Source: Escherichia coli O157:H7 (GTDB lineage Bacteria; Pseudomonadota; Gammaproteobacteria; Enterobacterales; Enterobacteriaceae). Taken from it: a DNA stretch of 64,000 bases. A program made the position numbers and the translations under genes. Under the pieces are notes generated by a model. The model saw only the letters and a list, made by a program, of their open reading frames with translations. It was not told the DNA's origin and searched no databases. The stretch lies in assembly GCF_013167455.1 (NCBI RefSeq), contig NZ_CP038328.1. One strand, written 5' to 3'. The number at the start of each line of letters is the position of its first letter. The first letter of the stretch is position 1. This document shows, piece by piece, positions 6,346 through 62,407 of this stretch.

Positions 6346-6346
6346 A

Positions 6347-8768: not shown

Positions 8769-9943
8769 GAAACCCTCCCGAGCAGAATGCTGGCGTTATT
8801 GCCGCCAAAGGCGAAGGAATTGGACAGGATCACCGGACGTGCCAGCGGCTGCGGTTTTTCGATAATGCCACACGGTGGCAGCGTGGGATCGCGCGGCGAC
8901 AGGCTGAAGTCCTGAGCGGGCAGCGGTAAATCACGCTGTAAAATCAACATACTAATTGCCGCCTCGGTAATGCCCGCTGTGCCCAGCGTGTGTCCGGTCA
9001 AATGTTTGGTGGAGCTGCACGGTACGCGTTCGCCAAACAGGGCGTTAACCACCATTGATTCAATCTGATCGTTGAGTTGTGTGGCGGTGCCGTGCAGGTT
9101 GATATAGCCGACGTCATCTGGCGTAAGCTGCGCATCGGTCAGCGCCTGATTAATAGCGCGGATCGCTCCTTCGCCCTGCGGATGCGGGGCTGAAATATGG
9201 TAAGCGTCGCTCGATTCACCAACGCCCAGCAACGCGATGGGCTGCGGTTCCCGGGTCAGCAGCATTAGCCCCGCCCCTTCACCAATGGTGATACCTGCGC
9301 GGTCACGACCAAACGGCTGACATAAGGTTGGCGACAGCGATTCGAGGCTGTGAAAACCGTTAATCGGCATCCGGCTCAGGGTGTCTGCGCCACCCACAAT
9401 GGCGGCATCGACCAGCCCCGCTTCGATAAGCCTGCGCCCGCTGATTATCGCTCTGGCGCTGGAAGAGCAGGCGGTTGAAAGGGTATAGGCCGGGCCGTCG
9501 AGCGCCAGCCAGTGGCTGAGAAAACGCGACGGATCGCCGAGTTCCTGTTGCGCGTAGTGCCATGTGGTGCTCGGCTGCCCGTGGGTGCGCAGGTTAACGT
9601 GCGTGTCGCCTTCATGCAGGCCGGAGGTGCTGGTACCAAGCACAATCGCAATGCGCTCGCGGCCATATTTCGCAATGGCGTCATCAACCTGCGGCTGGAT
9701 CTGCGCCAGCGCCGCCAGCAGGATCTGATTGTTGCGCGAGCGGTGCGCAGCGAATTTTTCCGGGATAAGCGGAAGCTCGCCATCCACGCCAGCCAGGACC
9801 GCCTGCGGATGCCCCTGCAACCAGCCTGCGCGCGGGCGCATGCCGGGAGCAACACCGCGAGTCAGGTTGGTTGCGATTTCGTCAAGGTTATTTCCCAGGG
9901 CGTTGATCATGCCGACGGCGGAAATATAAATCATATCAGTCAC
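8765..9943 (-). CDS. apeO: Beta-ketoacyl synthase (KS partner of the chain-length-factor-like protein)
   Basis: 392 aa; active-site TACSSS Cys with HGTAT and GHTLG His motifs. Confidence 0.8.
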   Translation of the reverse strand: MTDMIYISAVGMINALGNNLDEIATNLTRGVAPGMRPRAGWLQGHPQAVLAGVDGELPLIPEKFAAHRSRNNQILLAALAQIQPQVDDAIAKYGRERIAIVLGTSTSGLHEGDTHVNLRTHGQPSTTWHYAQQELGDPSRFLSHWLALDGPAYTLSTACSSSARAIISGRRLIEAGLVDAAIVGGADTLSRMPINGFHSLESLSPTLCQPFGRDRAGITIGEGAGLMLLTREPQPIALLGVGESSDAYHISAPHPQGEGAIRAINQALTDAQLTPDDVGYINLHGTATQLNDQIESMVVNALFGERVPCSSTKHLTGHTLGTAGITEAAISMLILQRDLPLPAQDFSLSPRDPTLPPCGIIEKPQPLARPVILSNSFAFGGNNASILLGRVS

Positions 9944-10520
9944 CTAAGTATTGAATGGTGATGTGGTATTTAAAGACATGCTGCTCAATGCTGATTGGCA
10001 CGCGTTTGCCCTTGCGATTCAGATAGGTGATTTCCGTGACCAGTTTGCCGCTGGCGTTACGCAGCTCGCGTTTGTCACCGTTGTCGCGAAGTGTCCATCC
10101 TGCGGGAAGTTGCGGTTGCCAGGCGCTAATCGGCCAGTGGCTGAGCATCACGTCAGCCAGTACCTGACTTGCGGGCGGTAACTGTGGGACGACGATGGAT
10201 TGCTCGGCGCGTAGCCCTTGCGCATCGTAGGTCACCAGAAACAGGCGAATGCCGACCGACGACAGCCCGGCAAGGGTGATTTTCTGATCGTCGGCGTTAA
10301 GCATCACTAACAGCGACTGGGTTTTGCCGTTGAAGCTGCCGGTCAACAGTTGCTGCGAATTGACTGCGGGTGAAATCCCTGGTGCCGGCAGCGTGATGCG
10401 CGTGCCAGGTTGCAGCCACGCCTGCGGGCGGCCTTCCTGTTCTGGTTGCGAGTGGCTACAGCCGGTGAGGATAAGCGTAGCGGTCAGGGCGAACGCTCGC
10501 CAGAATGTGGATTTGATCAT
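9936..10520 (-). CDS. apeN: Lipoprotein of the APE export module (DUF3261-like)
   Basis: 194 aa; signal peptide with lipobox LTGC; sits between the MMPL exporter and a KS. Confidence 0.65.
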   Translation of the reverse strand: MIKSTFWRAFALTATLILTGCSHSQPEQEGRPQAWLQPGTRITLPAPGISPAVNSQQLLTGSFNGKTQSLLVMLNADDQKITLAGLSSVGIRLFLVTYDAQGLRAEQSIVVPQLPPASQVLADVMLSHWPISAWQPQLPAGWTLRDNGDKRELRNASGKLVTEITYLNRKGKRVPISIEQHVFKYHITIQYLGD

Positions 10521-12835: not shown

Positions 12836-13409
12836 CGGTCAGTTGCGCTGGCGTCAGTTGATGTTGGGTAAGAGCAATATCGGTGCGATCGCCCTGTTTA
12901 TCATTAAGTTGAATGCTCTCCAGATAGGTTTTCCCGGCGAGATCGATGGTGTTGAAAATTTTATCCAGCGGCGTGGTGGTCGGCGTCAGGCGCAGCGTCC
13001 AGCGGCCTTCGCCTTTGTCAGCAAATTCGACGCGGAAGTTTTGTTCCAGCACTTTGCGATCGGCCTGGAACAACGCGCGCAGCAGGTGGTTAAACTGGAA
13101 CATCTGCGGGTTGTTTTCTGCCGTGATGATTTGCGGCGGCTGACCGTTGATCACCTGCACCATGCGTTTATCGTCCAGTAATAGTTGCATGGGGAACGGT
13201 GAGGTTTGATCCCACAACAGCCCCTGGTCGCGGGCGATCAACATCTGGCCCTGAGATCGCAGCGGCTGCGGCAGATCTTTAATCGTCCGGGTTTGATCGA
13301 AATGGGCGCGGATCACCGGTTGTTCGGTAAAGCGTTGCTGAAGATCGTCCAGGGTCAGGGCGCTCACAAACGGGCTAATCAGCAGCGCCAGCAGCGGTAA
13401 AAATTTCAT
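12804..13409 (-). CDS. apeL: LolA-like outer-membrane lipoprotein carrier protein
   Basis: 201 aa with signal peptide; size and position match the LolA-like component of APE clusters. Confidence 0.65.
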   Translation of the reverse strand: MKFLPLLALLISPFVSALTLDDLQQRFTEQPVIRAHFDQTRTIKDLPQPLRSQGQMLIARDQGLLWDQTSPFPMQLLLDDKRMVQVINGQPPQIITAENNPQMFQFNHLLRALFQADRKVLEQNFRVEFADKGEGRWTLRLTPTTTPLDKIFNTIDLAGKTYLESIQLNDKQGDRTDIALTQHQLTPAQLTDDERQRFAAQ

Positions 13410-13828
13410 GGTTTGACTCCCATGCGTTCAAACAGAATATCGGGGCTGACAAAGCACAGTTCGCGACTTTGCTCGTCGACCGCGACCTGAATGGTGTATC
13501 CGGTGGTGGCGCGTTTGCCCGTTTCGGCATCGAAAATCTGATAGCCAATCCGCAGACGGTTTTCGAACTCTTCGATATGCGCACGCACGCGGATGCGTTG
13601 CTCAAAGGTGAGGGCGTGGCGATATTTCACCCGCGCATCGACCACTGGCCACAAATAACCGGACTCTTTCATTTGCCGATAGCCGTAATTGAACTGGTTG
13701 AGCAGCGCCTCGCGAGCCACTTCAAAGTAGCGAAAATAGTTACCGTGCCAGGCCACGCCCATCATATCGACGTCGTGAAAGGGAATGGTCAGCTCGACTT
13801 CTGCGGTAAATCGGGGATCGTTCAGCAC
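13406..13828 (-). CDS. apeK: Hotdog-fold acyl-CoA/acyl-ACP thioesterase (4HBT-like)
   Basis: 140-aa small thioesterase-sized ORF, translationally coupled (ATGA overlap) to the next gene. Confidence 0.65.
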   Translation of the reverse strand: MLNDPRFTAEVELTIPFHDVDMMGVAWHGNYFRYFEVAREALLNQFNYGYRQMKESGYLWPVVDARVKYRHALTFEQRIRVRAHIEEFENRLRIGYQIFDAETGKRATTGYTIQVAVDEQSRELCFVSPDILFERMGVKP

Positions 13829-13831
13829 CCT

Positions 13832-15508
13832 TTACTCCTTGTCCTGAATTTCCGGCAGTTGCCAGAAATCGAAAAAATTAAACCAGTCGAGAGGCGACTG
13901 GAGCGCGTAATGTTCCAGACGCGCGGCGTAATGATCGATAGCGTTTTGCAGCGCCTGTTGGCGTTCGCCGCGCGGCAGCTGCAGTGGGTCGGCAAAGCTT
14001 TCGCAGTGAATATGCAGCTTGCCGTGCTGGCGCAGGGCGAAAATCAGATTCACCGGGCAGCGCAAAATAGAGGCGAGAATAAACGGCCCCTGTGGGAAAG
14101 GCGCAGGCTGGCCCATAAACGAACTCCAGCAGACGCGCCAGTCGCCGCCGCGTTGCGGGTTGACGGCGATGCGGTCACCGACAATCGCCACCCATTCGCC
14201 GTTATCCAGCTTCTCTTTCAGCAGGATGGCGGTTTCTGGGCCGATATCTGTTACCGGCATCAGGTTAATGCCTGCCTGAGGAGCCATCTCCTGCATTATC
14301 TGTTTAAAGCGTTGGGCGTTTTCGCTAAACACCAGCGCGTTAATGGTTTTGTAGCCCTGAATTTTTGCCAGCGCCCGGCACACTTCCACATCGCCAAGAT
14401 GCGAGGCCAGCAGCAATTTGCCGCGCGGATCGCGGACGTCAAGCGCTGCTTCTGCGCCTGGCGCAAACAGCACATCACGCCCTGGTTGTAGCTCGCCGCG
14501 CCAGCTGGCGATTTTGTCGAGCATGGCATTACCGAAACGTAGAAAGTGCTGATAGCTGTTGAGTTTTGCCGCCTGTGGTTGATGCTGTCGTACACGGGCG
14601 AGCCAGTCTTGCGACGCTTTGCGCGCACGAGAAGCAGTGAGCCAGTAGACGCCCACCACCGGGTAAAGCAGCGCGCTAAACGCCGTTCTTCCCAGCAGAC
14701 GCCAGACCAGCAGCATCAGGCGCATTCCCCATAATCCTTTCACTTCACTCTGCCGCGCCCAGTGGCAGGAAGAGCGGCGCATCAGCAGTGAAGGAATACG
14801 CGGCAACATGCCGAAAAACAGACGCGTGTGCATGAGCGAGATGCGGACGTTATCTTTCAGGGCATCAAAATGCGAAAGCCCGTCCAGTGGATAGGTGACG
14901 CGGGTCGGCACGAAATAGCTGGTATTTCCCTGCCAGTAGAGGCGCACCATCACTTCGGTGTCGAAATCCATCCGCTTGCCGATGGTGGCGTGTTTTGCCA
15001 GTTGCAGCGTTGGCGCAACCGGATAAACGCGAAAACCGCACATGCTGTCTTTCAGTTGCAGGGAGAGCGTTTCGATCCATACCCAGACGTGGGTGACCCA
15101 GCGCCCGTAAAGCCGTGAGCGGGGGATGGAGTCATCGTAAATTGGCTGGCCGGAGATCAGTGCCGCAGGTTGTTGTTCAGCGAGAGCCAGCAGTTTAGGG
15201 ATATCTTCAATCGCGTGCTGACCGTCAGCATCCACCTGCACCGCATGGCTGAACCCTGCGTCTGCCGCTGCCTGTAAGCCACGCATCACCGCCGCGCCTT
15301 TGCCTGCGTTTTCTGCCAGGCGAATTAAGGTCACGCCAGGCTGTTCGGCAAGCAGACTGTCCAGTTGCTGTTGTGTGGTGGCATCGCTGCCGTCATCCAC
15401 CACAATACAGGGCAGATTAAATGGCTTAAGACGCGCCAGCACGCCCGGCATCATCGCGCCGTGGTTGTAGCAGGGTATCAACACGCAGGGAGAAAAGTTT
15501 ACCGACAT
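13832..15508 (-). CDS. apeJ: Bifunctional family-2 glycosyltransferase / acyltransferase
   Basis: 558 aa; N-terminal GT2 motif VVDDGSD, followed by a membrane segment and a C-terminal acyltransferase-like domain. Confidence 0.7.
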   Translation of the reverse strand: MSVNFSPCVLIPCYNHGAMMPGVLARLKPFNLPCIVVDDGSDATTQQQLDSLLAEQPGVTLIRLAENAGKGAAVMRGLQAAADAGFSHAVQVDADGQHAIEDIPKLLALAEQQPAALISGQPIYDDSIPRSRLYGRWVTHVWVWIETLSLQLKDSMCGFRVYPVAPTLQLAKHATIGKRMDFDTEVMVRLYWQGNTSYFVPTRVTYPLDGLSHFDALKDNVRISLMHTRLFFGMLPRIPSLLMRRSSCHWARQSEVKGLWGMRLMLLVWRLLGRTAFSALLYPVVGVYWLTASRARKASQDWLARVRQHQPQAAKLNSYQHFLRFGNAMLDKIASWRGELQPGRDVLFAPGAEAALDVRDPRGKLLLASHLGDVEVCRALAKIQGYKTINALVFSENAQRFKQIMQEMAPQAGINLMPVTDIGPETAILLKEKLDNGEWVAIVGDRIAVNPQRGGDWRVCWSSFMGQPAPFPQGPFILASILRCPVNLIFALRQHGKLHIHCESFADPLQLPRGERQQALQNAIDHYAARLEHYALQSPLDWFNFFDFWQLPEIQDKE

Positions 15509-15852
15509 AGGCGGATCTTCCCGCTACTGGCGGTGTGGCGGGCGTCACCGTCGTGACGCTGATAGCTAAAGCTCAGAATCTGGCGTTCTTCCTGCCAGTT
15601 AAGCGCGAGCGTGACGCGGTTTTCCGGCAGCAACGGAGACTGGAATTTTATGTTCTGAATGGAGTGAAAACGCCAGCCAGGCGCGAGCAGATTGAGCGCG
15701 TAGCTCATCGCCCAGTCGATTTGCGCAACTCCTGGGAGTAATGGTTGCACGGCAAAATGACCGCGAAACCAGAACAGATCCGCCCTGAGATGCAGAACAA
15801 TTTCAAGGTGATTCGTTTGTGCCTGATGGCGCTCGATTTCATGGGGCTTCAT
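15499..15852 (-). CDS. apeI: Hotdog-fold dehydratase (second DH subunit)
   Basis: Start set at the ATG at 15852, which has an AGGAG ribosome-binding site 9 nt upstream, giving 117 aa. The ORF track extends it to 15882. Confidence 0.65.
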   Translation of the reverse strand: MKPHEIERHQAQTNHLEIVLHLRADLFWFRGHFAVQPLLPGVAQIDWAMSYALNLLAPGWRFHSIQNIKFQSPLLPENRVTLALNWQEERQILSFSYQRHDGDARHTASSGKIRLCR

Positions 15853-17200
15853 GAAATAACTCCTGTAATTGCGCATAGACACGCTTGTTCATACTGTTTA
15901 CTGGCATTTCATCAATAACGCGCCAGTAACGCGGAATAGCAACTGGCTCCAGCGTCGGGCGCAGTAAACGCCGCCAGGTCATTTCCTGGCTATGCCCGCC
16001 GCCGTTCTGCCATTGCAGATGAGCTTCGTCATCCAGCACCAGCAAAACGCCTATGCTCTGACGCCCGCCGCGCGTAACGGGAACTGCCGCCGCCTCGCGA
16101 ATGCCGTCCAGCGCCAGTAGACGTTGTTCTACTTCCTGGAGTGAAATACGTTTTTCTTCAATCTTAACGATGCGCCCACGACGCCCCATCAGATGGAACT
16201 GACCATCTTCGCTAAACTGTAAGATATCGTCGAGTAACATGCCGTTATCTTCCGCTATCAGCGGTGAAAAGAGGCGAAAGGCATCGCCTTCGGCCTGGAA
16301 CTGCATACCTGGGAGGGGTAGCCAGCGGCGTTGCTCTTGTTCGCGGTAGCGCCAGGCGATGACGCCAGTTTCCGTGCTGCCGTAGATTTCATCAGGCCAG
16401 ACGCGCAGCCAGCTCGCGGTATGTTGTACATCCTGCCACGGCAGCTCACCGCCAGCAGAGAGAAGCACCTGAACGGGTGGCGGAGAAAGCTGGGTATCCA
16501 GGCGCTTCAAAAATGCCGGGCTGCTGATGAAGATATAGCGATGCTGATGACTCAACGCGGCAAACTGTTCGACATACCAGAGCATGGCGGCGTGCAGCGG
16601 TAATCCCAACGCCATGGGCAGGAAAACGCGAAAAGTCAGGCCGTACAAATGCTGCGGCAATACGGAACCGACGACACGACAACCCGCCAGACGTGCGCCT
16701 AATCGTTCAGCCAGCAGTTCTGCTTCACGATCCAGCAAATGAACAGGTTTAATCGCCCGTTTCGGCTGTCCCGTGGAACCGGAGGTAAACAGCTCGATAA
16801 AAGCCTCTGGCGCTATAGCGGCAAAGGTGAAGGATTGTGTCGCGATTTGTGGAGAACTTGCTACCAACAGCAATGAACCTTGCCAGTTAAGTTCGCTGTC
16901 GCTAAGCACACCATCAAAAAGTTCACGTTGCTCGTTAAGCTGGATAACACGGTTATGCCCCGGAAGCACCGGCGTTTTTCCGGCGTGTAGCGTGGCGAGC
17001 AGGGCAACGATAAACAGATAGCTGTTCTCAAAGCACAGCGCCCAGCGTTCACCCGGCTGTTGCTGCAAGCGGCAGATAAGTTGCGCGACATCGTGACGCA
17101 AATCGCCCAGCGTCCAGGTACTTTCGTTCAGCCACGCAATGGGTGTGTCATCAGGGCGTGGCGCAGTCAGCCAGCGTGCAAGCGGTAAGGTCTGCTTCAT
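15839..17200 (-). CDS. apeH: AMP-dependent synthetase/ligase (adenylating starter-unit ligase, acyl-ACP synthetase-like)
   Basis: AMP-binding motif TSGSTGQPK; start placed at the ATG at 17200, which forms an ATGA overlap with the upstream gene's stop, giving 453 aa. Confidence 0.8.
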   Translation of the reverse strand: MKQTLPLARWLTAPRPDDTPIAWLNESTWTLGDLRHDVAQLICRLQQQPGERWALCFENSYLFIVALLATLHAGKTPVLPGHNRVIQLNEQRELFDGVLSDSELNWQGSLLLVASSPQIATQSFTFAAIAPEAFIELFTSGSTGQPKRAIKPVHLLDREAELLAERLGARLAGCRVVGSVLPQHLYGLTFRVFLPMALGLPLHAAMLWYVEQFAALSHQHRYIFISSPAFLKRLDTQLSPPPVQVLLSAGGELPWQDVQHTASWLRVWPDEIYGSTETGVIAWRYREQEQRRWLPLPGMQFQAEGDAFRLFSPLIAEDNGMLLDDILQFSEDGQFHLMGRRGRIVKIEEKRISLQEVEQRLLALDGIREAAAVPVTRGGRQSIGVLLVLDDEAHLQWQNGGGHSQEMTWRRLLRPTLEPVAIPRYWRVIDEMPVNSMNKRVYAQLQELFHEAP

Positions 17201-17778
17201 GCGCGATCTCTTTTCATCACCTGACGGCGCAGCAGCCATTCACCAGCCATTAACGTCCCCATCAACAAATAAGCAATCATGCCGTTCCAGGCGGTCCATA
17301 ACGACATATCGGCATAAAGCGCGGTAAAGAGGGCAATTCCACCGTTAATGATGAAAAAGCCGCACCAGATTTGCGTGACGTGGCGGGTATAGCGCACGCC
17401 CTTTTCCGGGAGGTCTGGCTCCTGCAACCGCGCCAGCCGCTCAACTATCGGCATTGCCGACCACAGCGAACCGCCAAAAACCGCCAGCATGACCGCGTTA
17501 ACCACTACCGGGTAAAACAGCAGTAGCTGGTGCGTTTTCAACATAAAGCTGGCGACACATAATGCGATGCCCACGACAGCGACGAGTTGCGTGACGGCTT
17601 GTAAAGGCCCCGCCTGGCGACGGGTCTGGCGCAGACGCAACAAAAGCAGCAACGCCATTAGCGGTAACAGCCAGTGCAGGCCGTTATGCGCTAAGCCAAA
17701 CCAAATCACAAACGGCCAGGCGAGCAGCAATAATCCAGTCAGCAGCTTAATCATCGGTAGCGAGCGAATGCCCGACAT
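17197..17778 (-). CDS. apeG: Integral membrane protein of the APE cluster
   Basis: 193 aa with about 5 predicted transmembrane helices. Confidence 0.6.
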   Translation of the reverse strand: MSGIRSLPMIKLLTGLLLLAWPFVIWFGLAHNGLHWLLPLMALLLLLRLRQTRRQAGPLQAVTQLVAVVGIALCVASFMLKTHQLLLFYPVVVNAVMLAVFGGSLWSAMPIVERLARLQEPDLPEKGVRYTRHVTQIWCGFFIINGGIALFTALYADMSLWTAWNGMIAYLLMGTLMAGEWLLRRQVMKRDRA

Positions 17779-17782
17779 CAGA

Positions 17783-18034
17783 TCAGGCTTCTTGTAGCAG
17801 GCGTTCTACAGCCTCGACGACATCCTGGACTGTACGCACTGCTTTAAACTCTTCCGGCTTGATTTTCTTACCGGTTTTCTTTTGCAGGTGCACAATCATG
17901 TCAACGGCGTCGATGCTGTCCAGTTCCAGATCTTCGTACAGGCGCGTTTCAGGTTTGATGTCCTGCGGATCGATTTCAAACAGCTTAACCAGCAGGGCTG
18001 AGACTTCCTGATAGACGGTTTGTTGTTCTGTCAT
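17783..18034 (-). CDS. apeF: Acyl carrier protein
   Basis: 83 aa; phosphopantetheine attachment motif LELDSIDAVDM; GAGGAA ribosome-binding site upstream. Confidence 0.85.
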   Translation of the reverse strand: MTEQQTVYQEVSALLVKLFEIDPQDIKPETRLYEDLELDSIDAVDMIVHLQKKTGKKIKPEEFKAVRTVQDVVEAVERLLQEA

Positions 18035-18045
18035 GATGGCTTTCC

Positions 18046-18303
18046 TCAGGCACGTTGCGCAGCAATGAAAGAGGCCAGAGTGGCGACGGAGAAAAAGTGC
18101 TGACGCATCTCTTCGCTTTCCGCAGAGAGCACGATGCCGTACTCATTTTTTACTGCCAGTCCCAGTTCCAGGGCATCGATAGAGTCCAGCCCTAAACCGT
18201 CGCCAAACAGCGGCGCGTCGGTATCGATATCATCAGGCGTCAACTCGTCCAGATTGAGGGTGCTGATGATGAGGTTTTTAATTTCCAGATAAAGCGCTTG
18301 CAT
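18046..18303 (-). CDS. apeE: Acyl carrier protein
   Basis: 85 aa; motif LGLDSIDALEL; AGGA ribosome-binding site upstream. Confidence 0.85.
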   Translation of the reverse strand: MQALYLEIKNLIISTLNLDELTPDDIDTDAPLFGDGLGLDSIDALELGLAVKNEYGIVLSAESEEMRQHFFSVATLASFIAAQRA

Positions 18304-19099
18304 TATTTATTCCTGAGAGAGGTAAACAACCTTGTTGTAATTGAAGCAAAAGATGCCGGTTTAACTGCCTTGCTGCCAGCGCCGGTTCTTGTGAAGTTGC
18401 ATCGTAAAATTTATTGATTTCAACCCGACCATGGACTGCAACCGTAAAAAACGGCCGGTCAGGTGGAACGTCATACCATTTACTTTGTTTATCCAGCAGA
18501 TGCTCGCTACAGCCGATTGTCACGATGCGTAAATCGCTGGCGCAGCGCACGGCAATATTCGCCGCCCCGCGCTGCAGCGTCATTTTTTCACCGGGCTTCG
18601 TTCGTGTGCCTTCGGGGAAAATCAGGATAGTGTCACCCTGTGCCAGTCGCTGTTGGCAGCGGGGTAACAGAGTTTCAGCTTCGCTGTTGATTAAATAATC
18701 TGTCGCCCGCACGACGCCGCCAAGAAAAGGATTTTTTAACAGCGCGCTTTTCACCAGGCAGTCAGTTTCTGGCATGACTGACGCCAGCAGCACGTAATCG
18801 ATCAGCGTGGGATGATTGGCTACGACGAGGCAACCGCGTTCCTGATGTAAGATTTCAGCGCCATCAATACGATAATCCAGTACGCCAAGCCCTTTCGCGA
18901 CAGTTAAAAACAGGCGAAAACTGGCGGCAATGCTGCGACGCGCCAAACGACGGCGGCGGGAAGTATCCCACACCAAAACTAACAATATGTTAAACCACAC
19001 GACAGAAAGCAGCAGGCCGCCGAGACCAAACAGGGCAAAACATAACCCGGTCATGACCAGTCGCCAGGTCCACTCCAGACGTGACATCAGCTTACTCAT
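18278..19099 (-). CDS. apeD: Lysophospholipid (PlsC-type) acyltransferase
   Basis: N-terminal membrane anchor and acyltransferase-sized body; start placed at the ATG at 19099 (ATGA coupling with the upstream stop), giving 273 aa. Confidence 0.7.
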   Translation of the reverse strand: MSKLMSRLEWTWRLVMTGLCFALFGLGGLLLSVVWFNILLVLVWDTSRRRRLARRSIAASFRLFLTVAKGLGVLDYRIDGAEILHQERGCLVVANHPTLIDYVLLASVMPETDCLVKSALLKNPFLGGVVRATDYLINSEAETLLPRCQQRLAQGDTILIFPEGTRTKPGEKMTLQRGAANIAVRCASDLRIVTIGCSEHLLDKQSKWYDVPPDRPFFTVAVHGRVEINKFYDATSQEPALAARQLNRHLLLQLQQGCLPLSGINNASALSGN

Positions 19100-19818
19100 C
19101 TGTGGCTCCAGCGCCATTGCACGCGCTCGCCAGGCAGTGAAAATGTGTCTACATTTTGTAAATAGTGCTGTAAAAACAACATGCTTTGCGGCAGTGTTGT
19201 TTCATTGCCCGCAATGGCTGACTGCGTTTCACATTGCCAGTCATCGCCAGCTTCAATCACCAGCGCGACGGCGTACGGCCAGGTCGGCATTTCTGATGGC
19301 AGTTGTGGGTGATAAAACTCGGGCAGGAAACCGTCAAAATCGACCATCAGCACGCGCTGGTATCCCGCTTGTAGCAGGCTAAGCACTTCACACAAACCTT
19401 GCTGGAAACTATCGCGACCAGCCGAAAGCGATGACGAAACGCTCGGCTGTTTGGCCGCAATGGTCAGGTTACCCACGGAAGAGTTGTGTACGGAGAGCGC
19501 GAAGTCCGTCGGAGAAAGCGCCTGTTCGGTTGCCAGTGCATGAACAATGCGGTAATTGCGCTCCAGTTCGCCATGACGACTGGTATACAAAACGGCGTCT
19601 GGTTGATGGCGGCGTAGCATTGCCAGACCGCATTCAACAGCCAGTTTGCTCCCGGAGCTGAGGCGGCGGGCGGTCATCATTGGCAGTTCACTTAATTTTG
19701 CCAACGGTGCTGTCGGGTCAATTGCCTGAGGCTGACGTGACCACTCCTGCCATTGCAGCGTTTCACTAAGTCCAGGCGCTCTTGCCTGCCAGTCGAGAAT
19801 GTTTAATGCAAATTTCAT
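19096..19818 (-). CDS. apeC: KS-like protein lacking the active-site Cys (chain-length-factor-like KS partner)
   Basis: Ketosynthase-like by cluster context, but no Cys/His/His triad is visible. Start ambiguous: ATG at 19818 (240 aa) or TTG at 19842 (248 aa). Confidence 0.6.
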   Translation of the reverse strand: MKFALNILDWQARAPGLSETLQWQEWSRQPQAIDPTAPLAKLSELPMMTARRLSSGSKLAVECGLAMLRRHQPDAVLYTSRHGELERNYRIVHALATEQALSPTDFALSVHNSSVGNLTIAAKQPSVSSSLSAGRDSFQQGLCEVLSLLQAGYQRVLMVDFDGFLPEFYHPQLPSEMPTWPYAVALVIEAGDDWQCETQSAIAGNETTLPQSMLFLQHYLQNVDTFSLPGERVQWRWSHR

Positions 19819-19858
19819 CAACGCGCGCCCGCGGTAAACCAAAATTATTAAGTGACGA

Positions 19859-20926
19859 TTATTTCTTTTGGCATATCAAAAGTGTATGCCCAACGCCTAA
19901 ATTATCGTGGCGCTCTGCTACCTGGAATCCTGCTTTATTCAGATAGTCGTAAAATTTCTCTGCACTATAGAAACGGCTGTTACCGTTTGCCATGCAGGTA
20001 AAATAAAGTGAGGACGCGTTCAGGCTAAACGATGCTGCTTCAAACCGCTGCGCATCCCAGAACAACTCCATGATGCAAACTTTTGCGCCAGGCTTCATTA
20101 CGCTGGCAATTTTGCTGAGTATGCTAATTATTTGTTCGGGTGAAAAACAGTCTAAAAATTGGCTCATCCACCAGATATCAGCCTCGCCCGGTAATGGGGC
20201 ATCGCTTAGCATATCCACCGCATGGAAATCTATGCGATCAGAAAAACCTGCATTCGCGATATTTTCTTTCGCTAGTACGATTTGTTGTGGCAGATCTAAT
20301 AACGTAACGGCGATGTTTTCATTGTATTTGCAGCAACGCAAAGCCCACTTACCCGTATTGCCGCCTACATCGTACAATGTTGTGGGGTTGTTGGCGAATA
20401 CATAAGGCAGTGCGGCGTTAAATGCGCCATCTGAATAGTAATGATCAAACGCAAACCAGCTTTCACGAGCGGCGTCTGGTAATTGCGAAAGTGCCGGATA
20501 TATCGTCGACCAGTCGCCAAATACTTTTAACCCGGAAGGTTTTCCTTCATTGAGTGAATCGGCGAGGAAGAAGAGCCCCTGGTAACAGACATCCTGGGTG
20601 AAATCCATATTCACGCGAGTCATAGTGTCATGCAGGAGGTAATGACCGATTTTCGCCAGGTAATAAATTCCCTCTTTACAGGTAATAATTCGCCCGCTTA
20701 AGCCCATATCTAACAGAACGCTGGTAGCATATTCGTTGATATGGCTATGTTCGGTGATATCAGCCAGCGTTGCGCCATGTTTGCCTTGCCGATCCAGATA
20801 TGAAAGTACACCCGCATTACGTAGGCAGAGTGCTGTTTGAAAAAGCATAGGGGCAAAGGCAATGCGTTGAGCTTCGGTAATCGCATCCAGTGCGCTAAGA
20901 GAATCCTGTTCGTACATGTTGGGCAC
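19859..20926 (-). CDS. apeB: Class I SAM-dependent O-methyltransferase
   Basis: 355 aa; SAM-binding motif LYDVGGNTG; first gene of the 17-gene block. Confidence 0.8.
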   Translation of the reverse strand: MPNMYEQDSLSALDAITEAQRIAFAPMLFQTALCLRNAGVLSYLDRQGKHGATLADITEHSHINEYATSVLLDMGLSGRIITCKEGIYYLAKIGHYLLHDTMTRVNMDFTQDVCYQGLFFLADSLNEGKPSGLKVFGDWSTIYPALSQLPDAARESWFAFDHYYSDGAFNAALPYVFANNPTTLYDVGGNTGKWALRCCKYNENIAVTLLDLPQQIVLAKENIANAGFSDRIDFHAVDMLSDAPLPGEADIWWMSQFLDCFSPEQIISILSKIASVMKPGAKVCIMELFWDAQRFEAASFSLNASSLYFTCMANGNSRFYSAEKFYDYLNKAGFQVAERHDNLGVGHTLLICQKK

Positions 20927-20985
20927 AACCTGTTAAGAGGGAATTAAATTATTATCGGACCGCAACGGCCCGACTTTAGGAAGAA

Positions 20986-21375
20986 TTATAAATCTGCGCC
21001 CGCTGACAAATTCAGTTGAATATCTTTGTCGAGATTGCGGACCCAGCGATTGTAGTTTTTATGAATTTGTCCGCCTGACGCTTGTAGGTTCTGGCTATTT
21101 TCATAATTGATATCGTAGCTGGATGCCGTGTAGTTAATGCGTATTTCCGCTGAATGATCGCGTGACTGTTGACGTGCTTTAATTATGCCTTGTCCGGCTT
21201 CGGACATAATCCATTTGCGTTCAACGCCAGCTTTCAGAATCGCTTTTTTCACTTGTTCCTGGGTATGACCAGCGCTGACGGTTGAGTGAACCTGATCAAT
21301 TGGCGCAGTACGCGCGCAACCTGCTAAAGCACCCACAACAGCAATAGCCGCAAACCATTTCATGTAATGTCTCAT
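20986..21375 (-). CDS. Small secreted lipoprotein, function unknown (possibly the first gene of the APE operon)
   Basis: 129 aa; signal peptide with lipobox LAGC; GGGG ribosome-binding site; sits between the AT-rich region and the methyltransferase gene. Confidence 0.55.
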   Translation of the reverse strand: MRHYMKWFAAIAVVGALAGCARTAPIDQVHSTVSAGHTQEQVKKAILKAGVERKWIMSEAGQGIIKARQQSRDHSAEIRINYTASSYDINYENSQNLQASGGQIHKNYNRWVRNLDKDIQLNLSAGADL

Positions 21376-36266: not shown

Positions 36267-36533
36267 ATGTCTGCTGTTAAAAAGCAGCGTATCGATCTGC
36301 GTTTAACTGACGATGACAAAAGTATGATTGAGGAAGCGGCAGCGATATCTAATCAGTCCGTCAGCCAATTTATGTTGAACAGCGCTTCGCAGCGGGCTGC
36401 GGAAGTGATTGAACAGCATCGGCGGGTGATCCTCAATGAGGAATCCTGGACGCGGGTGATGGATGCGCTGAGTAATCCACCGTCACCAGGTGAAAAGCTA
36501 AAACGTGCGGCAAAACGTCTTCAGGGAATGTAA
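36267..36533 (+). CDS. DUF1778-family antitoxin (TacA/AtaR/ItaR-like) of a GNAT toxin-antitoxin module
   Basis: 88 aa, 6 nt upstream of a GNAT toxin gene; small charged protein typical of DUF1778 antitoxins. Confidence 0.8.
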   Translation: MSAVKKQRIDLRLTDDDKSMIEEAAAISNQSVSQFMLNSASQRAAEVIEQHRRVILNEESWTRVMDALSNPPSPGEKLKRAAKRLQGM

Positions 36534-36539
36534 TAATTT

Positions 36540-37067
36540 ATGGATGATCTGACGATAGAGATTCTGACCGATGATGCAGATTATGATCTACAGCGATTCG
36601 ACTGCGGCGAGGAAGCGTTAAATCTCTTTCTGACGACACATCTCGTTCGTCAACATCGCAACAAAATTCTGCGAGCGTATATCCTTTGTCGCAACACTCC
36701 AGAACGTCAGGTGCTGGGATATTACACATTATGCGGCAGTTGTTTTGAACGAGCCGCATTGCCCTCGAAATCGAAACAGAAAAAAATTCCCTACAAAAAT
36801 ATTCCCAGCGTTACTCTTGGGCGTCTGGCAATTGATCGTTCATTACAGGGGCAGGGATGGGGAGCAACACTGGTTGCTCATGCCATGAAAGTCGTCTGGT
36901 CAGCCTCTTTAGCGGTAGGTATTCACGGTCTTTTTGTCGAGGCGCTGAATGAAAAAGCCCATACGTTTTATAAATCGCTGGGCTTTATCCCTTTAGTCGG
37001 GGAAAACGAAAATGCGTTATTTTTCCCAACCAAATCCATTGAACTGCTTTTTACACAGAGCGATTAA
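36540..37067 (+). CDS. GNAT-fold acetyltransferase toxin (TacT/AtaT/ItaT-family tRNA-acetylating toxin)
   Basis: 175 aa; motifs FDCGEEALNLFL and LGRLAIDRSLQGQGWGATL are typical of aminoacyl-tRNA-acetylating GNAT toxins. Confidence 0.8.
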   Translation: MDDLTIEILTDDADYDLQRFDCGEEALNLFLTTHLVRQHRNKILRAYILCRNTPERQVLGYYTLCGSCFERAALPSKSKQKKIPYKNIPSVTLGRLAIDRSLQGQGWGATLVAHAMKVVWSASLAVGIHGLFVEALNEKAHTFYKSLGFIPLVGENENALFFPTKSIELLFTQSD

Positions 37068-51547: not shown

Positions 51548-51964
51548 ATGAAAGCAAAATACGTGATTCTCTCTGTACTTAATAAACAAGAACTCTTCTA
51601 TTTAAAATCAAGATACAAAGAAATGAAGAAACTTGCTAATAAGCATGAAGTCTCTCTCGTAGAACAAAATTTCATTGATGCTATTATTTCAATGGTGGGT
51701 TATTGCTCTTTGGGGTTTGGGTTGGTAAGTATAGTTAATGGGATATTGCTTGTATTCTCATTTTTTCAGGATAATATGTTGAAAAGTTTTTTTCTGTCTT
51801 CAATCGTTAGTATTGCCATGTTCGCTATTCTTATCATACACAGAAAACTGGATACTAAATTCTCTTACCAATTATGCCTCAAAATGTTTTATCTTAAAAT
51901 TAAGTTATTCTGTTATTGTATTCCTGCACCAGTTGTAGTTCCTGATATATTCATTAATAATTGA
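51548..51964 (+). CDS. Hypothetical small membrane protein in the low-GC islet
   Basis: 138-aa ORF with an AGGGGG ribosome-binding site 5 nt upstream; two predicted TM helices; very AT-rich codon usage. Confidence 0.4.
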   Translation: MKAKYVILSVLNKQELFYLKSRYKEMKKLANKHEVSLVEQNFIDAIISMVGYCSLGFGLVSIVNGILLVFSFFQDNMLKSFFLSSIVSIAMFAILIIHRKLDTKFSYQLCLKMFYLKIKLFCYCIPAPVVVPDIFINN

Positions 51965-52824
51965 TGTGGCATATGATTATTGAGGCCATGTTTTATCCTC
52001 AAATTTGTATTTTCATCATAAAATGTAACCTTGAATTTTTTTACAGTAGAACTAATTTGTATGATTTTTAAAGGGGTAGGTTTTAATGAGAATTTATTTT
52101 TAAAATCAACTGATGTGTAATGAAATAATCGTCCTGTACCAGGTCTATTTCCTAATGAAGGACGAATCAATCTATTATACTTAGGTACGATTTTCATGCC
52201 TGAATATCCACCATATGCAGTAATCGAAAAGTCCACGATGCTGTATGCATAATCAGCAGAATTAATATCACCTCCCATTTTTTTTGCTATTACTCTGTAG
52301 AGTTCACGTATTGGACCTGAATCATACTCGTTAAAAAATAAAGGTGATAAGCTTTCATAAAAATTATTCGCCCCATGAGCAACTAATGTGACGCCTATAC
52401 CTTTTATTCGGTTTGAATGCACTACCTTACCAAATTTCAACGCGCCAACCCCGCCTACGACCTGTCCTACAGATGCAACAATATCGAAACTTAAGTTCAC
52501 ATATTTTATCAAACCATGTTCTTCGAAAATATCAGTAGTGATATATTTATCATAATTTCCTTGTCTGAAAAGTTGATATTCTTTTCTTGCTGTTTCTGAC
52601 TCCATTTTTAATTCATTGATAAGTCGTGCTTTTTCATTGATGTCATATGAAGAATTGAATCTGTGAGTAATATCATTAATAGTATTTTCTATTTCTTGCA
52701 GATACTCGAATCTAACTAATGGGGACTCAATAAAAAATGTTGAAGCAAGTGTTGCGGTTTTGCGTAAAGAAAGGGCATATTTGTTAAGATCATATCGTAA
52801 ATGACTTATAGCTGCTGTACCCAT
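51913..52824 (-). CDS. Hypothetical protein in the low-GC islet (occupies the position of the K-12 yhhZ/yrhA variable segment)
   Basis: 303-aa ORF; AT-rich; Gly-rich segments (VVGGVGALKFGKV, TAYGGYSGMK); no recognisable family from the sequence alone. Confidence 0.5.
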   Translation of the reverse strand: MGTAAISHLRYDLNKYALSLRKTATLASTFFIESPLVRFEYLQEIENTINDITHRFNSSYDINEKARLINELKMESETARKEYQLFRQGNYDKYITTDIFEEHGLIKYVNLSFDIVASVGQVVGGVGALKFGKVVHSNRIKGIGVTLVAHGANNFYESLSPLFFNEYDSGPIRELYRVIAKKMGGDINSADYAYSIVDFSITAYGGYSGMKIVPKYNRLIRPSLGNRPGTGRLFHYTSVDFKNKFSLKPTPLKIIQISSTVKKFKVTFYDENTNLRIKHGLNNHMPHQLLMNISGTTTGAGIQ

Positions 52825-53034: not shown

Positions 53035-53523
53035 TTACTTCACCCGCGCCATAAAATACGCATCAACATATTCACCATTACGTAATGCGTACTTCTTGCC
53101 AGTCCCTTCAATCTCAAAGCCGAATTTTTTATAGACCTTAATTGCTGGCGCGTTATCGACGAACACCGTTAGCTCAATACGATCTACCCGCAACCAGTTG
53201 TCGCACATTTCAATCATCTCTCGCATCAGGGCGCTGGCGACGCCGCGATTCTTCCAGCGGGCGTCGACACAGATACCAAAATCGGCAACATGACTGCGGC
53301 GTGGGCGCTGTTGCACGTCAATGGTGAGATGGCCCACGACGTCTCCATCAATACAGGCGACGAGTTGCTTGATGCCGGGACGATCGGCGAGTCGCTCCTG
53401 CCACATATGATCGGAAGGATGAGGCACCTGTAGTGTGTTGTAATACACCTCCGGCTGGGCGTGAATCTGCCTGATGGCCTCGTAATCCCGTGTTTCAGCA
53501 TGGCGTATCACTATCTCACTCAT
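53035..53523 (-). CDS. yhhY: GNAT N-acetyltransferase YhhY
   Basis: Start at MSEIVIRHAETRDYEAIRQ gives 162 aa. Confidence 0.88.
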   Translation of the reverse strand: MSEIVIRHAETRDYEAIRQIHAQPEVYYNTLQVPHPSDHMWQERLADRPGIKQLVACIDGDVVGHLTIDVQQRPRRSHVADFGICVDARWKNRGVASALMREMIEMCDNWLRVDRIELTVFVDNAPAIKVYKKFGFEIEGTGKKYALRNGEYVDAYFMARVK

Positions 53524-53607
53524 TCCTTTGTCCTCTTTGGGGTAAATGTCCCTTTCAACATCATTGACTTTCGAATGCGAGTCAAATGCATTTTTTTGCA
53601 AAAAGTG

Positions 53608-53640
53608 TTGGACAAGTGCGAATGAGAATGATTATTATTG
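53608..53640 (+). promoter_or_regulatory. ryhB promoter with Fur box
   Basis: TTGGAC -35-like hexamer, then AATGAGAATGATTATTATT (Fur-box-like) overlapping the -10 region, directly upstream of the RyhB 5' end. Confidence 0.7.
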
Positions 53641-53644
53641 TCTC

Positions 53645-53734
53645 GCGATCAGGAAGACCCTCGCGGAGAACCTGAAAGCACGACATTGCTCACATTGCTT
53701 CCAGTATTACTTAGCCAGCCGGGTGCTGGCTTTT
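53645..53734 (+). ncRNA. ryhB: RyhB small RNA (Fur-repressed, Hfq-dependent iron-sparing sRNA)
   Basis: 90-nt sequence GCGATCAGGAAGACCCTCGCGGAGAACCTGAAAGCACGACATTGCTCACATTGCTTCCAGTATTACTTAGCCAGCCGGGTGCTGGCTTTT matches RyhB, including the terminal hairpin AGCCAGC/GCTGGCT plus U-run; lies between yhhY and yhhX. Confidence 0.9.
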
Positions 53735-53856
53735 TTTTTGATCTTTCGTTCTCAATTTATCCTCGGGAAGTGCTTGTGTTCGTTATGCGCACTCCAGTAG
53801 GAACCACGTCCGCTTTGCGCTAAGGTGTAAATAACCACCTTAAAAAGGACGAAATC

Positions 53857-54894
53857 ATGGTCATCAACTGCGCCTTTATTGGCTTCGGCAAAAGCACCAC
53901 CCGTTACCATCTGCCGTATGTACTTAACCGCAAGGATAGCTGGCATGTCGCGCATATTTTTCGCCGCCATGCAAAGCCGGAAGAACAAGCTCCCATTTAC
54001 TCTCATATCCATTTCACCAGCGATCTCAACGAAGTGCTAAACGATCCCGATGTTAAGCTGGTTGTTGTCTGCACCCATGCGGACAGCCACTTCGAGTACG
54101 CGAAGCGCGCGATGGAAGCCGGGAAAAATGTGCTGGTCGAAAAACCGTTCACTCCGACACTTGCGCAGGCGAAAGAGCTGTTTGCACTGGCGAAAAGCAA
54201 AGGGCTGACCGTCACGCCATATCAGAATCGTCGCTTTGATTCCTGCTTCCTGACGGCGAAAAAAGCGATTGAAAGCGGCAAGCTGGGAGAGATTGTCGAA
54301 GTGGAAAGCCATTTTGACTATTACCGCCCGGTGGCAGAAACCAAACCTGGGCTGCCGCAGGATGGCGCGTTCTATGGCCTTGGTGTGCATACGATGGACC
54401 AGATTATTTCTCTGTTCGGTCGCCCGGATCACGTCGCTTATGACATCCGCAGCCTGCGCAATAAAGCCAATCCTGACGATACTTTCGAAGCGCAACTGTT
54501 TTATGGCGATCTAAAAGCCATCGTCAAAACCAGCCATCTGGTGAAAATCGATTATCCGAAATTTATCGTTCACGGTAAGAAAGGTTCGTTTATTAAATAT
54601 GGTATCGACCAGCAGGAAACCAGCCTGAAGGCTAATATTATGCCGGGCGAACCGGGATTCGCAGCGGATGATTCGGTCGGTGTGCTGGAGTATGTCAATG
54701 ACGAGGGCGTGACGGTCAGAGAAGAGATGAAGCCGGAGATGGGCGATTACGGGCGCGTTTATGATGCGTTGTATCAAACCATCACCCACGGTGCGCCAAA
54801 TTACGTCAAGGAATCTGAAGTTCTTACGAATCTGGAAATACTTGAACGTGGATTCGAGCAAGCCTCTCCCTCCACAGTGACTCTCGCGAAGTAA
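53857..54894 (+). CDS. yhhX: Gfo/Idh/MocA-family NAD(P)-dependent oxidoreductase YhhX
   Basis: 345 aa with N-terminal Rossmann fold. Confidence 0.9.
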   Translation: MVINCAFIGFGKSTTRYHLPYVLNRKDSWHVAHIFRRHAKPEEQAPIYSHIHFTSDLNEVLNDPDVKLVVVCTHADSHFEYAKRAMEAGKNVLVEKPFTPTLAQAKELFALAKSKGLTVTPYQNRRFDSCFLTAKKAIESGKLGEIVEVESHFDYYRPVAETKPGLPQDGAFYGLGVHTMDQIISLFGRPDHVAYDIRSLRNKANPDDTFEAQLFYGDLKAIVKTSHLVKIDYPKFIVHGKKGSFIKYGIDQQETSLKANIMPGEPGFAADDSVGVLEYVNDEGVTVREEMKPEMGDYGRVYDALYQTITHGAPNYVKESEVLTNLEILERGFEQASPSTVTLAK

Positions 54895-59080: not shown

Positions 59081-61205
59081 ATGGAAAAGCACGCAGCTGA
59101 ATTGCTTTTACAGCGGATGTTAGGAAATACCACCGCTACTTTCAGGGAAGGGCAATGGGAAGCCATAGACGCGGTGGTGAACCAACGGCGAAAACTGCTG
59201 GTTGTCCAACGCACTGGCTGGGGGAAAAGTGCTGTGTACTTCATCGCCAGTAAAATCTTCCGCGATCGCGGCGCTGGCCCGACAATTATCATCTCTCCTT
59301 TGCTTGCCCTGATGCGTAACCAGGTTGCCGCCGCTGAACGGTTAGGTATTACGGCTGAAACGTTGAATTCTACAAACAGAGAAGAATGGCAGCGCATTAG
59401 CGATAAGTTGCTGCAAGGTGAGGTCGATTGCTTGCTGGTTTCCCCGGAACGTTTGGCAAACCAGGACTTTATCGAAACGGTTTTATATCCTATAGCCGAT
59501 CATATTGGCTTGCTTGTGGTCGACGAGGCGCACTGCATCTCTGATTGGGGCCACGATTTTCGCCCGGATTACCGACGTATATTAGATATTTTGCGCAACT
59601 ACCTGCGAATACCCCTGTTCTGGGTACAACCGCGACAGCGAATAACCGTGTCGTTGAGGATATCCGTCAGCAATTGGGTGACATTGTGATTCAGCGTGGA
59701 ACGCTGGCTCGCGAAAGTTTGGCGCTTGATGCCTTAGTCTTAGGTGAACACTCATCCCGTCTGGCATGGTTAGCAACGGTTATCCCTCAGTTTTCCAAAT
59801 CGGGAATTGTTTATACCCTGACTACTCGCGATGCCGAACTTGTCGCCGAGTGGTTAAGGAAAAATGGTATCAGTGCATTTGCTTACTACAGCGGCGTGAC
59901 TTGTGAAGGCGCGGAAGATTCTAATACTGCCAGGGAATATCTGGAGCAGGCGTTGCTGGCAAATAAAATTAAAGTGCTGGTTGCGACAACGGCGCTGGGA
60001 ATGGGCTTTGACAAACCGGATTTGGGGTTTGTTATTCATTACCAGATGCCAGGTTCGATAGTTGGTTACTACTAACAGGTGGGGCGTGCCGGTCGCGGTA
60101 TCGATTCTGCTGTTGGCATACTGCTTTGCGGCAGTGAAGACCGTGCTATTCATAAATTCTTCCGTGAAAGCGCCTTTCCTGCGGAGGCGCAAATTCATGA
60201 AATACTCAACGTACTTAGCGTGAATGACGGTCTTACCTTACGAGGCATTGAACAACGGACGAATCTCCGTTATGGGCAAATAGAAAAAGCACTGAAATTA
60301 TTGGTAGCTGAAAATCCATCGCCTGTGGTGTATACCGAGAAATTATGGCGCAGAACAATTGTCAGTTTTTCTCCTGACCATGAACGAATTAACCATTTGA
60401 TGAATCAGAGAAAAAGTGAGCTGGCAGACGTTGAAAGCTATATCACGACCAAGGAGTGCAAAATGCAATTTCTGCGCCGCGCACTCGATGAGCCAGGTGC
60501 CGAACATTGTGGTAAATGTAGCAGTTGTCTTCAGCATCCGTTGTTGTCGCCCGACATTGATAGCGGCTTACTCCATGCGGCAAACTTATTTATTAAACAC
60601 GCTGACCTGTCATTAAATCTCAATAAACAGGTGGCAGCTGGGGCTTTTACGCAATACGGATTTAAAGGGAACTTGCCTGCGAGTTTACAAGGATCTACGG
60701 GGCGAATCCTTTCTCGTTGGGGATATTCCGGGTGGGGAAAGCAGGTAGCACAGGAGAAAAAAACGGGGCGATTCAGTGATGAACTGGTGGAGGCATGTGC
60801 GGAAATGGTTCGCCAACGCTGGAATCCGCATCCTGAACCAACCTGGGTATGCTGCGTTCCTTCATTAAAGCACCTCGACCTGGTTCCTGATTTTGAAAGC
60901 ACCTCGACCTGGTTCCTGATTTTGCCCGGCGACTGGCGGCGAAACTTGGCTTACCTTTTATTGATGCCATTGAAAAAGTCGTGGACAATCCACCGCAGAA
61001 AATGCAGCAAAACCGTTTCCACCAGTGTCAAAATCTCGACGGGGCGTTTGTGATTACCCCTCCTTTGATGCCTGGTCCGGCGTTGCTGGTTGACGATATC
61101 GTGGATTCTGCATGGACGCTGACAGTTCTAACAGCACTGTTACGCCAGGCAGGTTGCCCGACGGTTTATCCTCTTGCCCTTGCTTCTACCTCGGTAAAAA
61201 ATTGA
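59081..61205 (+). pseudogene. Disrupted RecQ-family DNA helicase fused to a C-terminal ComF-like phosphoribosyltransferase domain
   Basis: Three ORF-track fragments belong to one gene: Walker A GWGKS and RecQ motifs [19 protein letters not shown] and GYY*QVGRAGRG, a Cys-rich RQC-like region, and a PRTase motif ALLVDDIVDSAWT at the C-terminus. Lesions: frameshift near 59597..59612, in-frame TAA at 60073..60075, 29-bp tandem duplication at 60896..60924. Reconstructed ancestral product about 698 aa. Confidence 0.75.
60867..60924 (+). repeat. Perfect 29-bp tandem duplication inside the RecQ-like gene
   Basis: AAAGCACCTCGACCTGGTTCCTGATTTTG occurs twice back to back (60867..60895 and 60896..60924); 29 is not a multiple of 3, so the reading frame shifts. 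Confidence 0.95.
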
Positions 61206-62407
61206 TGAATCTTTCAGCCAATGCACAAGCAACTCTCCTGCTAACCAGCGATTTTTCTCGCGCGGCGGCGAGTAAGTATAAACCTCTTAGTAATAGTGAA
61301 TGGGGGAAGTTTGCATTATGGCTGAAGCACCAACGTATCAGTCCCGCCGAGCTTCTGGTGCCGCAACCGCAAGAGAAACTTACAGGCTGGAGCGATCCGC
61401 GTATTTCTCAGGAGCGTATTCTTGGCTTGCTGGCGCGTGGTCATAGTCTGGCGTTGGCGGTAGATAAGTGGCAACGCGCCGGTTTATGGATCTTAACCCG
61501 CGGAGATGCTGATTATCCCGTTCGCTTGAAAAACCGATTGCGAACGGATGCACCTCCCGTTTTATTTGGCTGCGGGAATAAAGCATTACTGCAAGCGGAA
61601 GGTATGGCGATTGTTGGCTCGCGAGATGCTCCGACTGACGATTTGCGCTATACCCAACAACTGGCCGCGAAACTGGCCCAACAGGGGATTTGCGTTATCT
61701 CTGGTGGTGCGCGAGGTATTGATGAATGTGCAATGGCGTCGGCACTGGAGGCCGGGGGAACTGCCGTTGGCGTATTAGCTGATAGCTTGTTAAAAACGAG
61801 TACGTTAGTGAAATGGCGTGAAGGGCTTATAGCAGGCAACCTGGTGTTGATTTCGCCGTTTTACCCAGAGGTACGTTTCACCGTCGGCAATGCGATGGCG
61901 CGAAATAAATATATTTATTGCCTTGCTGAAAGCGCAATGGTTGTACGTGCGGGAATGACCGGTGGAACGATAACCGGGGCGATGGAGGCATTAAAACATC
62001 AGTGGCTGCCTGTGCAGGTTAAACCAAATCAGGATATGCAATCAGCCAATTCACGATTAGTAGAAAATGGGGCGTCATGGAGTGCTGAACAGGCTGAGAA
62101 TGTGACGATCAGACTGCCAGACGTTCCTGGGCTGATGTATGACAGAGCACTCCGTAACGCTCAACCAGAACTGTTTTCGCTGCATGAAGATGACGCAAAT
62201 TACGCAGTAATGCCCGCGTATACGCCTGTCGATTTTTATCAACTCTTTGTGGCGGAACTGGCGATCCTTGCAAAGGAATCGATAAGTATTGAAAGGCTGG
62301 CGTCTTGTACTGGTTTAACCATCGAACAAATTAGTGTGTGGCTGAACCGCGCAGAAGAAGAGGGAAGGGTTATCCGATTGGGCGAAGGTCATTATCAGTT
62401 CAGGTAA
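61205..62407 (+). CDS. DprA/Smf-family (SLOG Rossmann) protein, a paralogue of the DNA-processing protein DprA
   Basis: 400 aa from the ATG at 61205, which shares a base with the TGA stop of the upstream helicase frame; Rossmann motifs AIVGSRDAPTDD and VISGGARGIDE; C-terminal winged-helix-like tail. Confidence 0.75.
   Translation: MNLSANAQATLLLTSDFSRAAASKYKPLSNSEWGKFALWLKHQRISPAELLVPQPQEKLTGWSDPRISQERILGLLARGHSLALAVDKWQRAGLWILTRGDADYPVRLKNRLRTDAPPVLFGCGNKALLQAEGMAIVGSRDAPTDDLRYTQQLAAKLAQQGICVISGGARGIDECAMASALEAGGTAVGVLADSLLKTSTLVKWREGLIAGNLVLISPFYPEVRFTVGNAMARNKYIYCLAESAMVVRAGMTGGTITGAMEALKHQWLPVQVKPNQDMQSANSRLVENGASWSAEQAENVTIRLPDVPGLMYDRALRNAQPELFSLHEDDANYAVMPAYTPVDFYQLFVAELAILAKESISIERLASCTGLTIEQISVWLNRAEEEGRVIRLGEGHYQFR

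Follow-up and report, generated by a model that had tools for sequence, protein, structure and literature searches.

What is encoded between yhhY and yhhX in the genome of an Escherichia coli O157:H7-type strain, and would an annotation built on open reading frames (ORFs) record it? The window, which is the whole 64,000-nucleotide stretch of DNA analysed here, carries between these two protein genes a segment for which an earlier note, made from the sequence alone, had proposed the RyhB small RNA (sRNA) preceded by a Fur-box promoter. RyhB is among the best-studied bacterial small RNAs and is a main iron-sparing regulator, and it is relevant to pathogens, O157:H7 for example, that meet iron limitation in the host. 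We conclude from sequence comparison that the locus is almost certainly ryhB, as carried on the chromosome of an E. coli O157:H7-type strain, with the following features.

53035-53523, - strand: yhhY, GNAT N-acetyltransferase (RefSeq; Pfam Acetyltransf_1, E = 5.8e-19), divergent from ryhB
53609-53614, + strand: -35 hexamer TGGACA (sigma-70 consensus scan; identical to K-12)
53618-53636, no strand assigned: secondary Fur-box-like site (14/19), one hexamer (6 bp) upstream of the main box and overlapping it
53624-53642, no strand assigned: main Fur box GAGAATGATTATTATTGTC (19-bp consensus), covering the -10 hexamer
53633-53638, + strand: -10 hexamer TATTAT (sigma-70 scan), 6 nt upstream of the annotated K-12 5′ end
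53645-53739, + strand: RyhB small RNA, 90 nt long if taken to 53734 and 95 nt, as annotated in K-12, if taken to the end of the T run
53645-53664, + strand: RyhB 5′ stem-loop, nt 1-20 (minimum-free-energy and centroid folds, both pairing GCGA with UCGC)
53682-53690, + strand: core for target pairing, GACAUUGCU (RyhB nt 38-46), with complementarity to the start-codon region of sodB
53713-53739, + strand: Rho-independent terminator (terminator scan, fold and Rfam structure line)
53857-54894, + strand: yhhX, Gfo/Idh/MocA oxidoreductase (RefSeq; Pfam GFO_IDH_MocA, E = 1.6e-30; C-terminal domain, E = 4.2e-47)

One exact copy of the 90-nt K-12 RyhB string is present in the window, on the + strand (53645-53734), and b4451, the K-12 annotation of 95 nt, maps onto 53645-53739 with 95 of 95 nt identical; the promoter, the Fur box and the terminator are also 100% identical to those of K-12. 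An Rfam covariance-model scan matched RF00057 (RyhB) with 83.1 bits against a gathering score of 55 (E = 3.6e-14), over 53674-53738 on the + strand and through all model positions (1-67 of 67), the model being one that takes in the pairing core and the terminator, not the RyhB 5′ stem-loop. At gathering thresholds, Rfam 15 gave no match besides RF00057 in the whole 64 kb, and no second RyhB copy. Compared with K-12 MG1655, the 331-bp yhhY-yhhX intergenic region is identical from the -35 hexamer to well beyond the terminator, and its only three differences, at 53573, at 53763 and as a 1-nt insertion near 53768, fall outside the ryhB element. A 501-bp query around ryhB was 100% identical to many E. 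coli O157:H7 genomes, and the window is colinear with strain PA20 (NZ_CP017669.1 847349-911348), from which it differs by 10 mismatches in 64,000 bases, the closest to ryhB lying at 56554. These results bear out what the earlier note had said of the locus: that the full 90-nt RyhB is present, that a covariance-model search and an alignment to K-12, the checks it had named, the former also as the one that could refute it, would identify it as RyhB, and that it lies between yhhY and yhhX, whose positions and strands reproduce the synteny of K-12. Of the range it had given (53608-53734), the start is one base before the -35 hexamer, and the end leaves out the last 5 T of the run, which reaches 53739.

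The promoter consists of TGGACA and TATTAT separated by an 18-nt spacer, with 10 of 12 matches to the sigma-70 consensus, and a consensus scan of 53400-53900 on both strands found no other promoter-like site. Fur sites were sought with the 19-bp consensus GATAATGATAATCATTATC, and chance expectation was taken from dinucleotide shuffles. The main Fur box, at positions -21 to -3 relative to the start at 53645, agrees with this consensus in 16 of its 19 bases on the - strand and in 15 on the + strand; it is the sole site in 64 kb within 3 mismatches, where 0.02 would be expected by chance, and an exhaustive count ranked it best in the window, followed by four sites at 14/19, among them the overlapping one at 53618-53636. 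The Fur-box-like dyad that had been described as overlapping the -10 region is thus recovered, as a 16/19 box at 53624-53642 that covers 53633-53638. In K-12, an information-theory model placed, just upstream of ryhB, one strong Fur site of 25.2 bits that overlaps two weaker ones, and an oligonucleotide with the strong site bound Fur in gel shifts (PMC2189734). Since the site sequence is identical to that of K-12, the gel-shift result applies directly here. The secondary 14/19 site at 53618-53636 is consistent with the reported K-12 cluster of one strong and two weaker sites.

At the other end of the RNA, the terminator hairpin AGCCAGC-CGGGT-GCTGGCT occupies 53713-53731 and is followed by TTTTTTTT. 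Its stem of 7 bp (5 of them G-C pairs), its 5-nt loop and a T run of 8-9 that extends to 53739 make up the complete Rho-independent terminator that had been claimed, and no other terminator-like site was found in a scan of 53400-53900. Hfq binding needs the 3′-terminal polyU of RyhB, which has a 9-U tail (PMC4509938), and the terminator hairpin with its U tail is predicted to be the 3′ Hfq-binding module. The minimum free energy of the whole RNA was no better than that of shuffled sequences (z = -0.59) and is uninformative as evidence of structure. Such a folding energy is common among sRNAs that have a long unpaired seed.

The central part of the RNA holds the pairing core. GACAUUGCU is a perfect 9-bp complement of AGCAAUGUC, which lies at -4 to +5 of sodB, across the start codon, and duplex prediction restricted to the core joins it with the sodB translation-initiation region. 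An unconstrained duplex of full-length RyhB with sodB was unrealistically long, and its energy was equalled by 29 of 1000 shuffles; the specific sodB signal is the 9-bp seed and not the total duplex energy. The sodB leader used for pairing was the K-12 sequence, which is 100% identical in 5406 of 5425 E. coli records, one of an O157:H7 strain included. An open hairpin at C37-U51 has been used in published target prediction (PMC4666370), and it coincides with the seed found here at nt 38-46.

Taken together with work on K-12, these elements outline how the locus would act. When iron is plentiful, Fe2+-Fur on the 19-bp box and the overlapping weaker site would cover the -10 hexamer and block RNA polymerase; for this step the site and its overlap with the -10 hexamer were found here, and binding has been demonstrated in other work on K-12 DNA of the same sequence. 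Under iron shortage Fur would leave, and transcription would start at 53645 and stop in the T run at 53731-53739. The predicted RNA product, 90-95 nt long, would have a stem-loop at its 5′ end, a centre that is mostly open and a terminator hairpin with a U tail, an anatomy that was read here, with the RNA ends taken from the K-12 annotation. With Hfq on the 3′ U tail and hairpin, the central core would pair with mRNAs for non-essential iron proteins, and this pairing would block translation and bring about, through RNase E, the decay of both mRNA and sRNA, so that iron would be spared. The Hfq and RNase E steps are established for K-12 RyhB, and the complementarity is the part demonstrated here. 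Induction by iron starvation or by fur deletion, Hfq-dependent stability and RNase E-coupled target decay are all known for the K-12 RyhB, which is identical in sequence. RyhB represses about 50 mostly iron-protein genes by blocking translation, by mRNA decay or by both, which has been termed iron-sparing, and it activates shiA and cirA (PMC4666370).

Of 5426 complete E. coli genomes, 5424 carry the 132-nt unit of promoter plus RNA, in every case on the chromosome, and with at least 99% identity in 5413. The unit occupies 5429 places in these 5424 genomes, which indicates that nearly all E. coli genomes carry one ryhB copy. Exceptions were seen: two of the 5426 genomes are without the unit, at least one holds three ryhB places, and the copy in NZ_CP195448.1 is only 93.6% identical and carries an insertion (141 bases as against 132).

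Matches to ryhB in records labelled as plasmid or phage were also considered and rejected as mobile copies. Those plasmid records that match over the full length are mislabelled chromosomes of 4-5 Mb, the matches of truly plasmid size are paralogues that share only the core, and the phage matches fall into large Salmonella contigs and small unannotated records of some 2 kb. Two of the latter, OR845464.1 (742-870) and OR851358.1 (1779-1907), hold a full RyhB locus at 88.5% identity, and one of the two lists E. coli O157:H7 as its host. Their identity is close to that of the Salmonella contig matches (88-92%), and they are probably pieces of bacterial DNA that were submitted under a phage label.

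Two paralogues of the RyhB family were compared with the window copy: one in Klebsiella pneumoniae (L006; NZ_CP076548.1 2947-3061, Rfam 74.1 bits) and one on a 10.9-kb circular plasmid of Enterobacter roggenkampii (L007; NZ_CP045066.1 2387-2501, Rfam 70.5 bits). The 29-nt core ACGACAUUGCUCACAUUGCUUCCAGUAUU around the seed is unchanged in both, and the 5′ domain differs from that of the window copy. The paralogues have terminator stems of GCCCGC/GCGGGC and GCCCACU/AGUGGGC where the RNA of the window has GCCAGC/GCUGGC, so that pairing is kept while the sequence changes, and each has, about 50 nt before the conserved core, a Fur-box-like palindrome of its own (14-15/19). A trans-acting sRNA would be expected to show just this pattern, a seed that does not vary and a stem with compensatory changes. 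The neighbours of the Enterobacter copy are a yeaQ-family gene and genes for diguanylate cyclases, with an IS903B transposase beside them, and the arrangement suggests that a small plasmid has picked up a chromosomal locus of the RyhB-2 type. The Klebsiella copy lies on a linear 221-kb record labelled as a plasmid, near a gene for the Fiu siderophore receptor, and this record may be a misassigned piece of chromosome.

A first rival explanation for the locus holds that it is mainly the Fur-regulated promoter and leader of yhhX, with the RNA of RyhB size arising by attenuation of a transcript that spans ryhB and yhhX. The arrangement of the genes would allow this, with yhhX co-directional with ryhB and 117 nt downstream of its terminator, no consensus promoter in the 117-nt gap between them (53740-53856), and the ryhB promoter alone in the scanned interval. 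About 20% of polymerases read through the K-12 ryhB terminator, but the 3′-extended forms of RyhB made by read-through do not bind Hfq (PMC4509938). Low iron raises the yhhX transcript, a rise that is lost when ryhB is deleted together with its promoter (PMC8896160), and the ryhB Fur site was originally assigned to yhhX (PMC2189734); yet the terminated RNA belongs fully to a conserved family of trans-acting sRNAs, its core does not vary among the paralogues, which have no yhhX downstream, and in Klebsiella ryhB itself has no yhhX after it (PMC3423075). Since members of the family occur where no yhhX lies downstream and the extended forms are not bound by Hfq, read-through into yhhX may be an added output and cannot replace the sRNA function, and we regard a locus that serves chiefly as the yhhX leader as very improbable.

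With ryhB retained as an sRNA gene, read-through into yhhX is a plausible second output of its promoter. A stronger form of this proposal, in which the ryhB terminator is a leaky valve and yhhX owes most of its expression to read-through from the ryhB promoter, which Fur represses, is possible, though we hold it only tentatively and lean somewhat against it. If it were true, YhhX would be an unrecognised iron-starvation enzyme and ryhB-yhhX a mixed sRNA-mRNA operon. It would extend known work and would not be a discovery, because the read-through and low-iron results cited above (PMC4509938; PMC8896160) already hint at it. Two of the three differences from K-12, at 53763 and at about 53768, lie in the gap at 53740-53856 and bear on the dependence of yhhX on read-through.

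A second alternative arises from the ORF track, which places four mechanically called ORFs over the locus.

53546-53800, + strand: ORF of 84 aa
53638-53823, + strand: ORF of 61 aa
53586-53675, + strand: ORF of 29 aa
53582-53686, - strand: ORF of 34 aa

If any of these (84, 61, 29 or 34 aa) were a real small-protein gene, the RNA would be an mRNA or a dual-function transcript. The ORFs do exist as mechanical calls, but none of the four has a Pfam match, and those on the + strand have their starts at 53546, 53586 and 53638, ahead of the point where transcription begins (53645), so that translation from the RyhB transcript is excluded for all three. ORFs of 20 aa or more, sought as the mark of a dual-function sRNA, do not start anywhere within 53645-53739 on the + strand. 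Neither the curated K-12 record nor the O157:H7 record annotates a CDS at the ryhB locus, and no report of a coding or dual-function RyhB appears in the titles and abstracts of the hits listed in a search of papers from 2018 onwards. The overlapping ORFs were rejected as genes on the absence of Pfam matches and on starts that precede the transcription start, and a small-protein gene at this position is, in our estimation, more improbable still than the yhhX leader. That a chance resemblance or a decayed pseudogene copy of ryhB could account for the locus can be dismissed outright, given a promoter and RNA 100% identical to K-12, the covariance-model E-value, the conserved yhhY-ryhB-yhhX synteny and the near-universal presence of ryhB in E. 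coli.

The locus is therefore best described as an sRNA gene, and the earlier note had warned both that the ORFs laid over it are spurious and that ORF-based annotation would miss it. The first point agrees with the four mechanical ORFs, which are without Pfam matches. The second holds for the records sampled: in 12 of 12 RefSeq pipeline records, a re-sequenced MG1655 among them, no feature lies under the ryhB match, and of all the records sampled only the curated NC_000913.3 lists ncRNA ryhB. In PA20 (NZ_CP017669.1), nothing is annotated from yhhY to yhhX (window 53524-53856; L001 1625-1957), and the locus tags skip RS04555 there, which suggests that a feature was once assigned at ryhB or is not displayed. 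The ryhB element in the window is already known and brings no new biology; its significance is one of annotation only, as a real non-coding gene is recovered where the sampled pipelines show none.

Several other features of the window were recorded. Between ggt and yhhY lies a gene with a DUF4225 domain (51913-52824, - strand), where K-12 has yhhZ (a putative endonuclease) beside yhhY, and this neighbour of the ryhB locus therefore varies between strains. A block of about 20 genes on the - strand (5758-21363), from acpT to just before yhhT, encodes ketoacyl-ACP synthases, a chain-length-factor-like protein, two acyl carrier proteins, FabG/FabZ-like enzymes and an MMPL transporter, as well as a LolA-like protein, a family 2 glycosyltransferase, a DUF3261 protein, an acyl-CoA synthetase, a thioesterase, an acyltransferase, a methyltransferase and a lipoprotein. 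By its gene content this block may resemble the lipid clusters of the aryl-polyene type and an O157 island that is absent from K-12. An ataR-ataT type II toxin-antitoxin pair, with a GNAT acetyltransferase toxin, lies between livJ and panM (36267-37067, + strand). In the interval from gntU to yhgN (59081-62407, + strand), a RecQ-family helicase pseudogene with a frameshift and an internal stop overlaps the start of a DprA-like gene.

Compared with known systems, the locus is closest to K-12 RyhB (b4451; synonyms SraI and IS176; RF00057), with which it shares the same RNA, promoter hexamers, Fur box and terminator and the same yhhY and yhhX flanks; it differs in having G for A at 53573, T for A at 53763 and an extra A near 53768, and in its O157:H7-type host. 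The RyhB-2-type paralogues (L006 and L007), which are presumably the Enterobacteriaceae counterparts of the RNA called RyhB-2, IsrE or RfrB in Salmonella, have the same 29-nt core, a terminator with a U tail and an upstream Fur-box-like palindrome, whereas their 5′ domain, their stem sequence and their neighbourhood (in L007 a yeaQ-family gene) are different. More distant are PrrF1 and PrrF2 of Pseudomonas, FsrA of Bacillus and IsrR of Staphylococcus, which are described as Fur-repressed iron-sparing sRNAs (PMC9410917). RyhB shares with them repression by Fur and the silencing of iron-protein mRNAs, but they are unrelated to it in sequence and stand outside RF00057, so that the likeness is one of function only.
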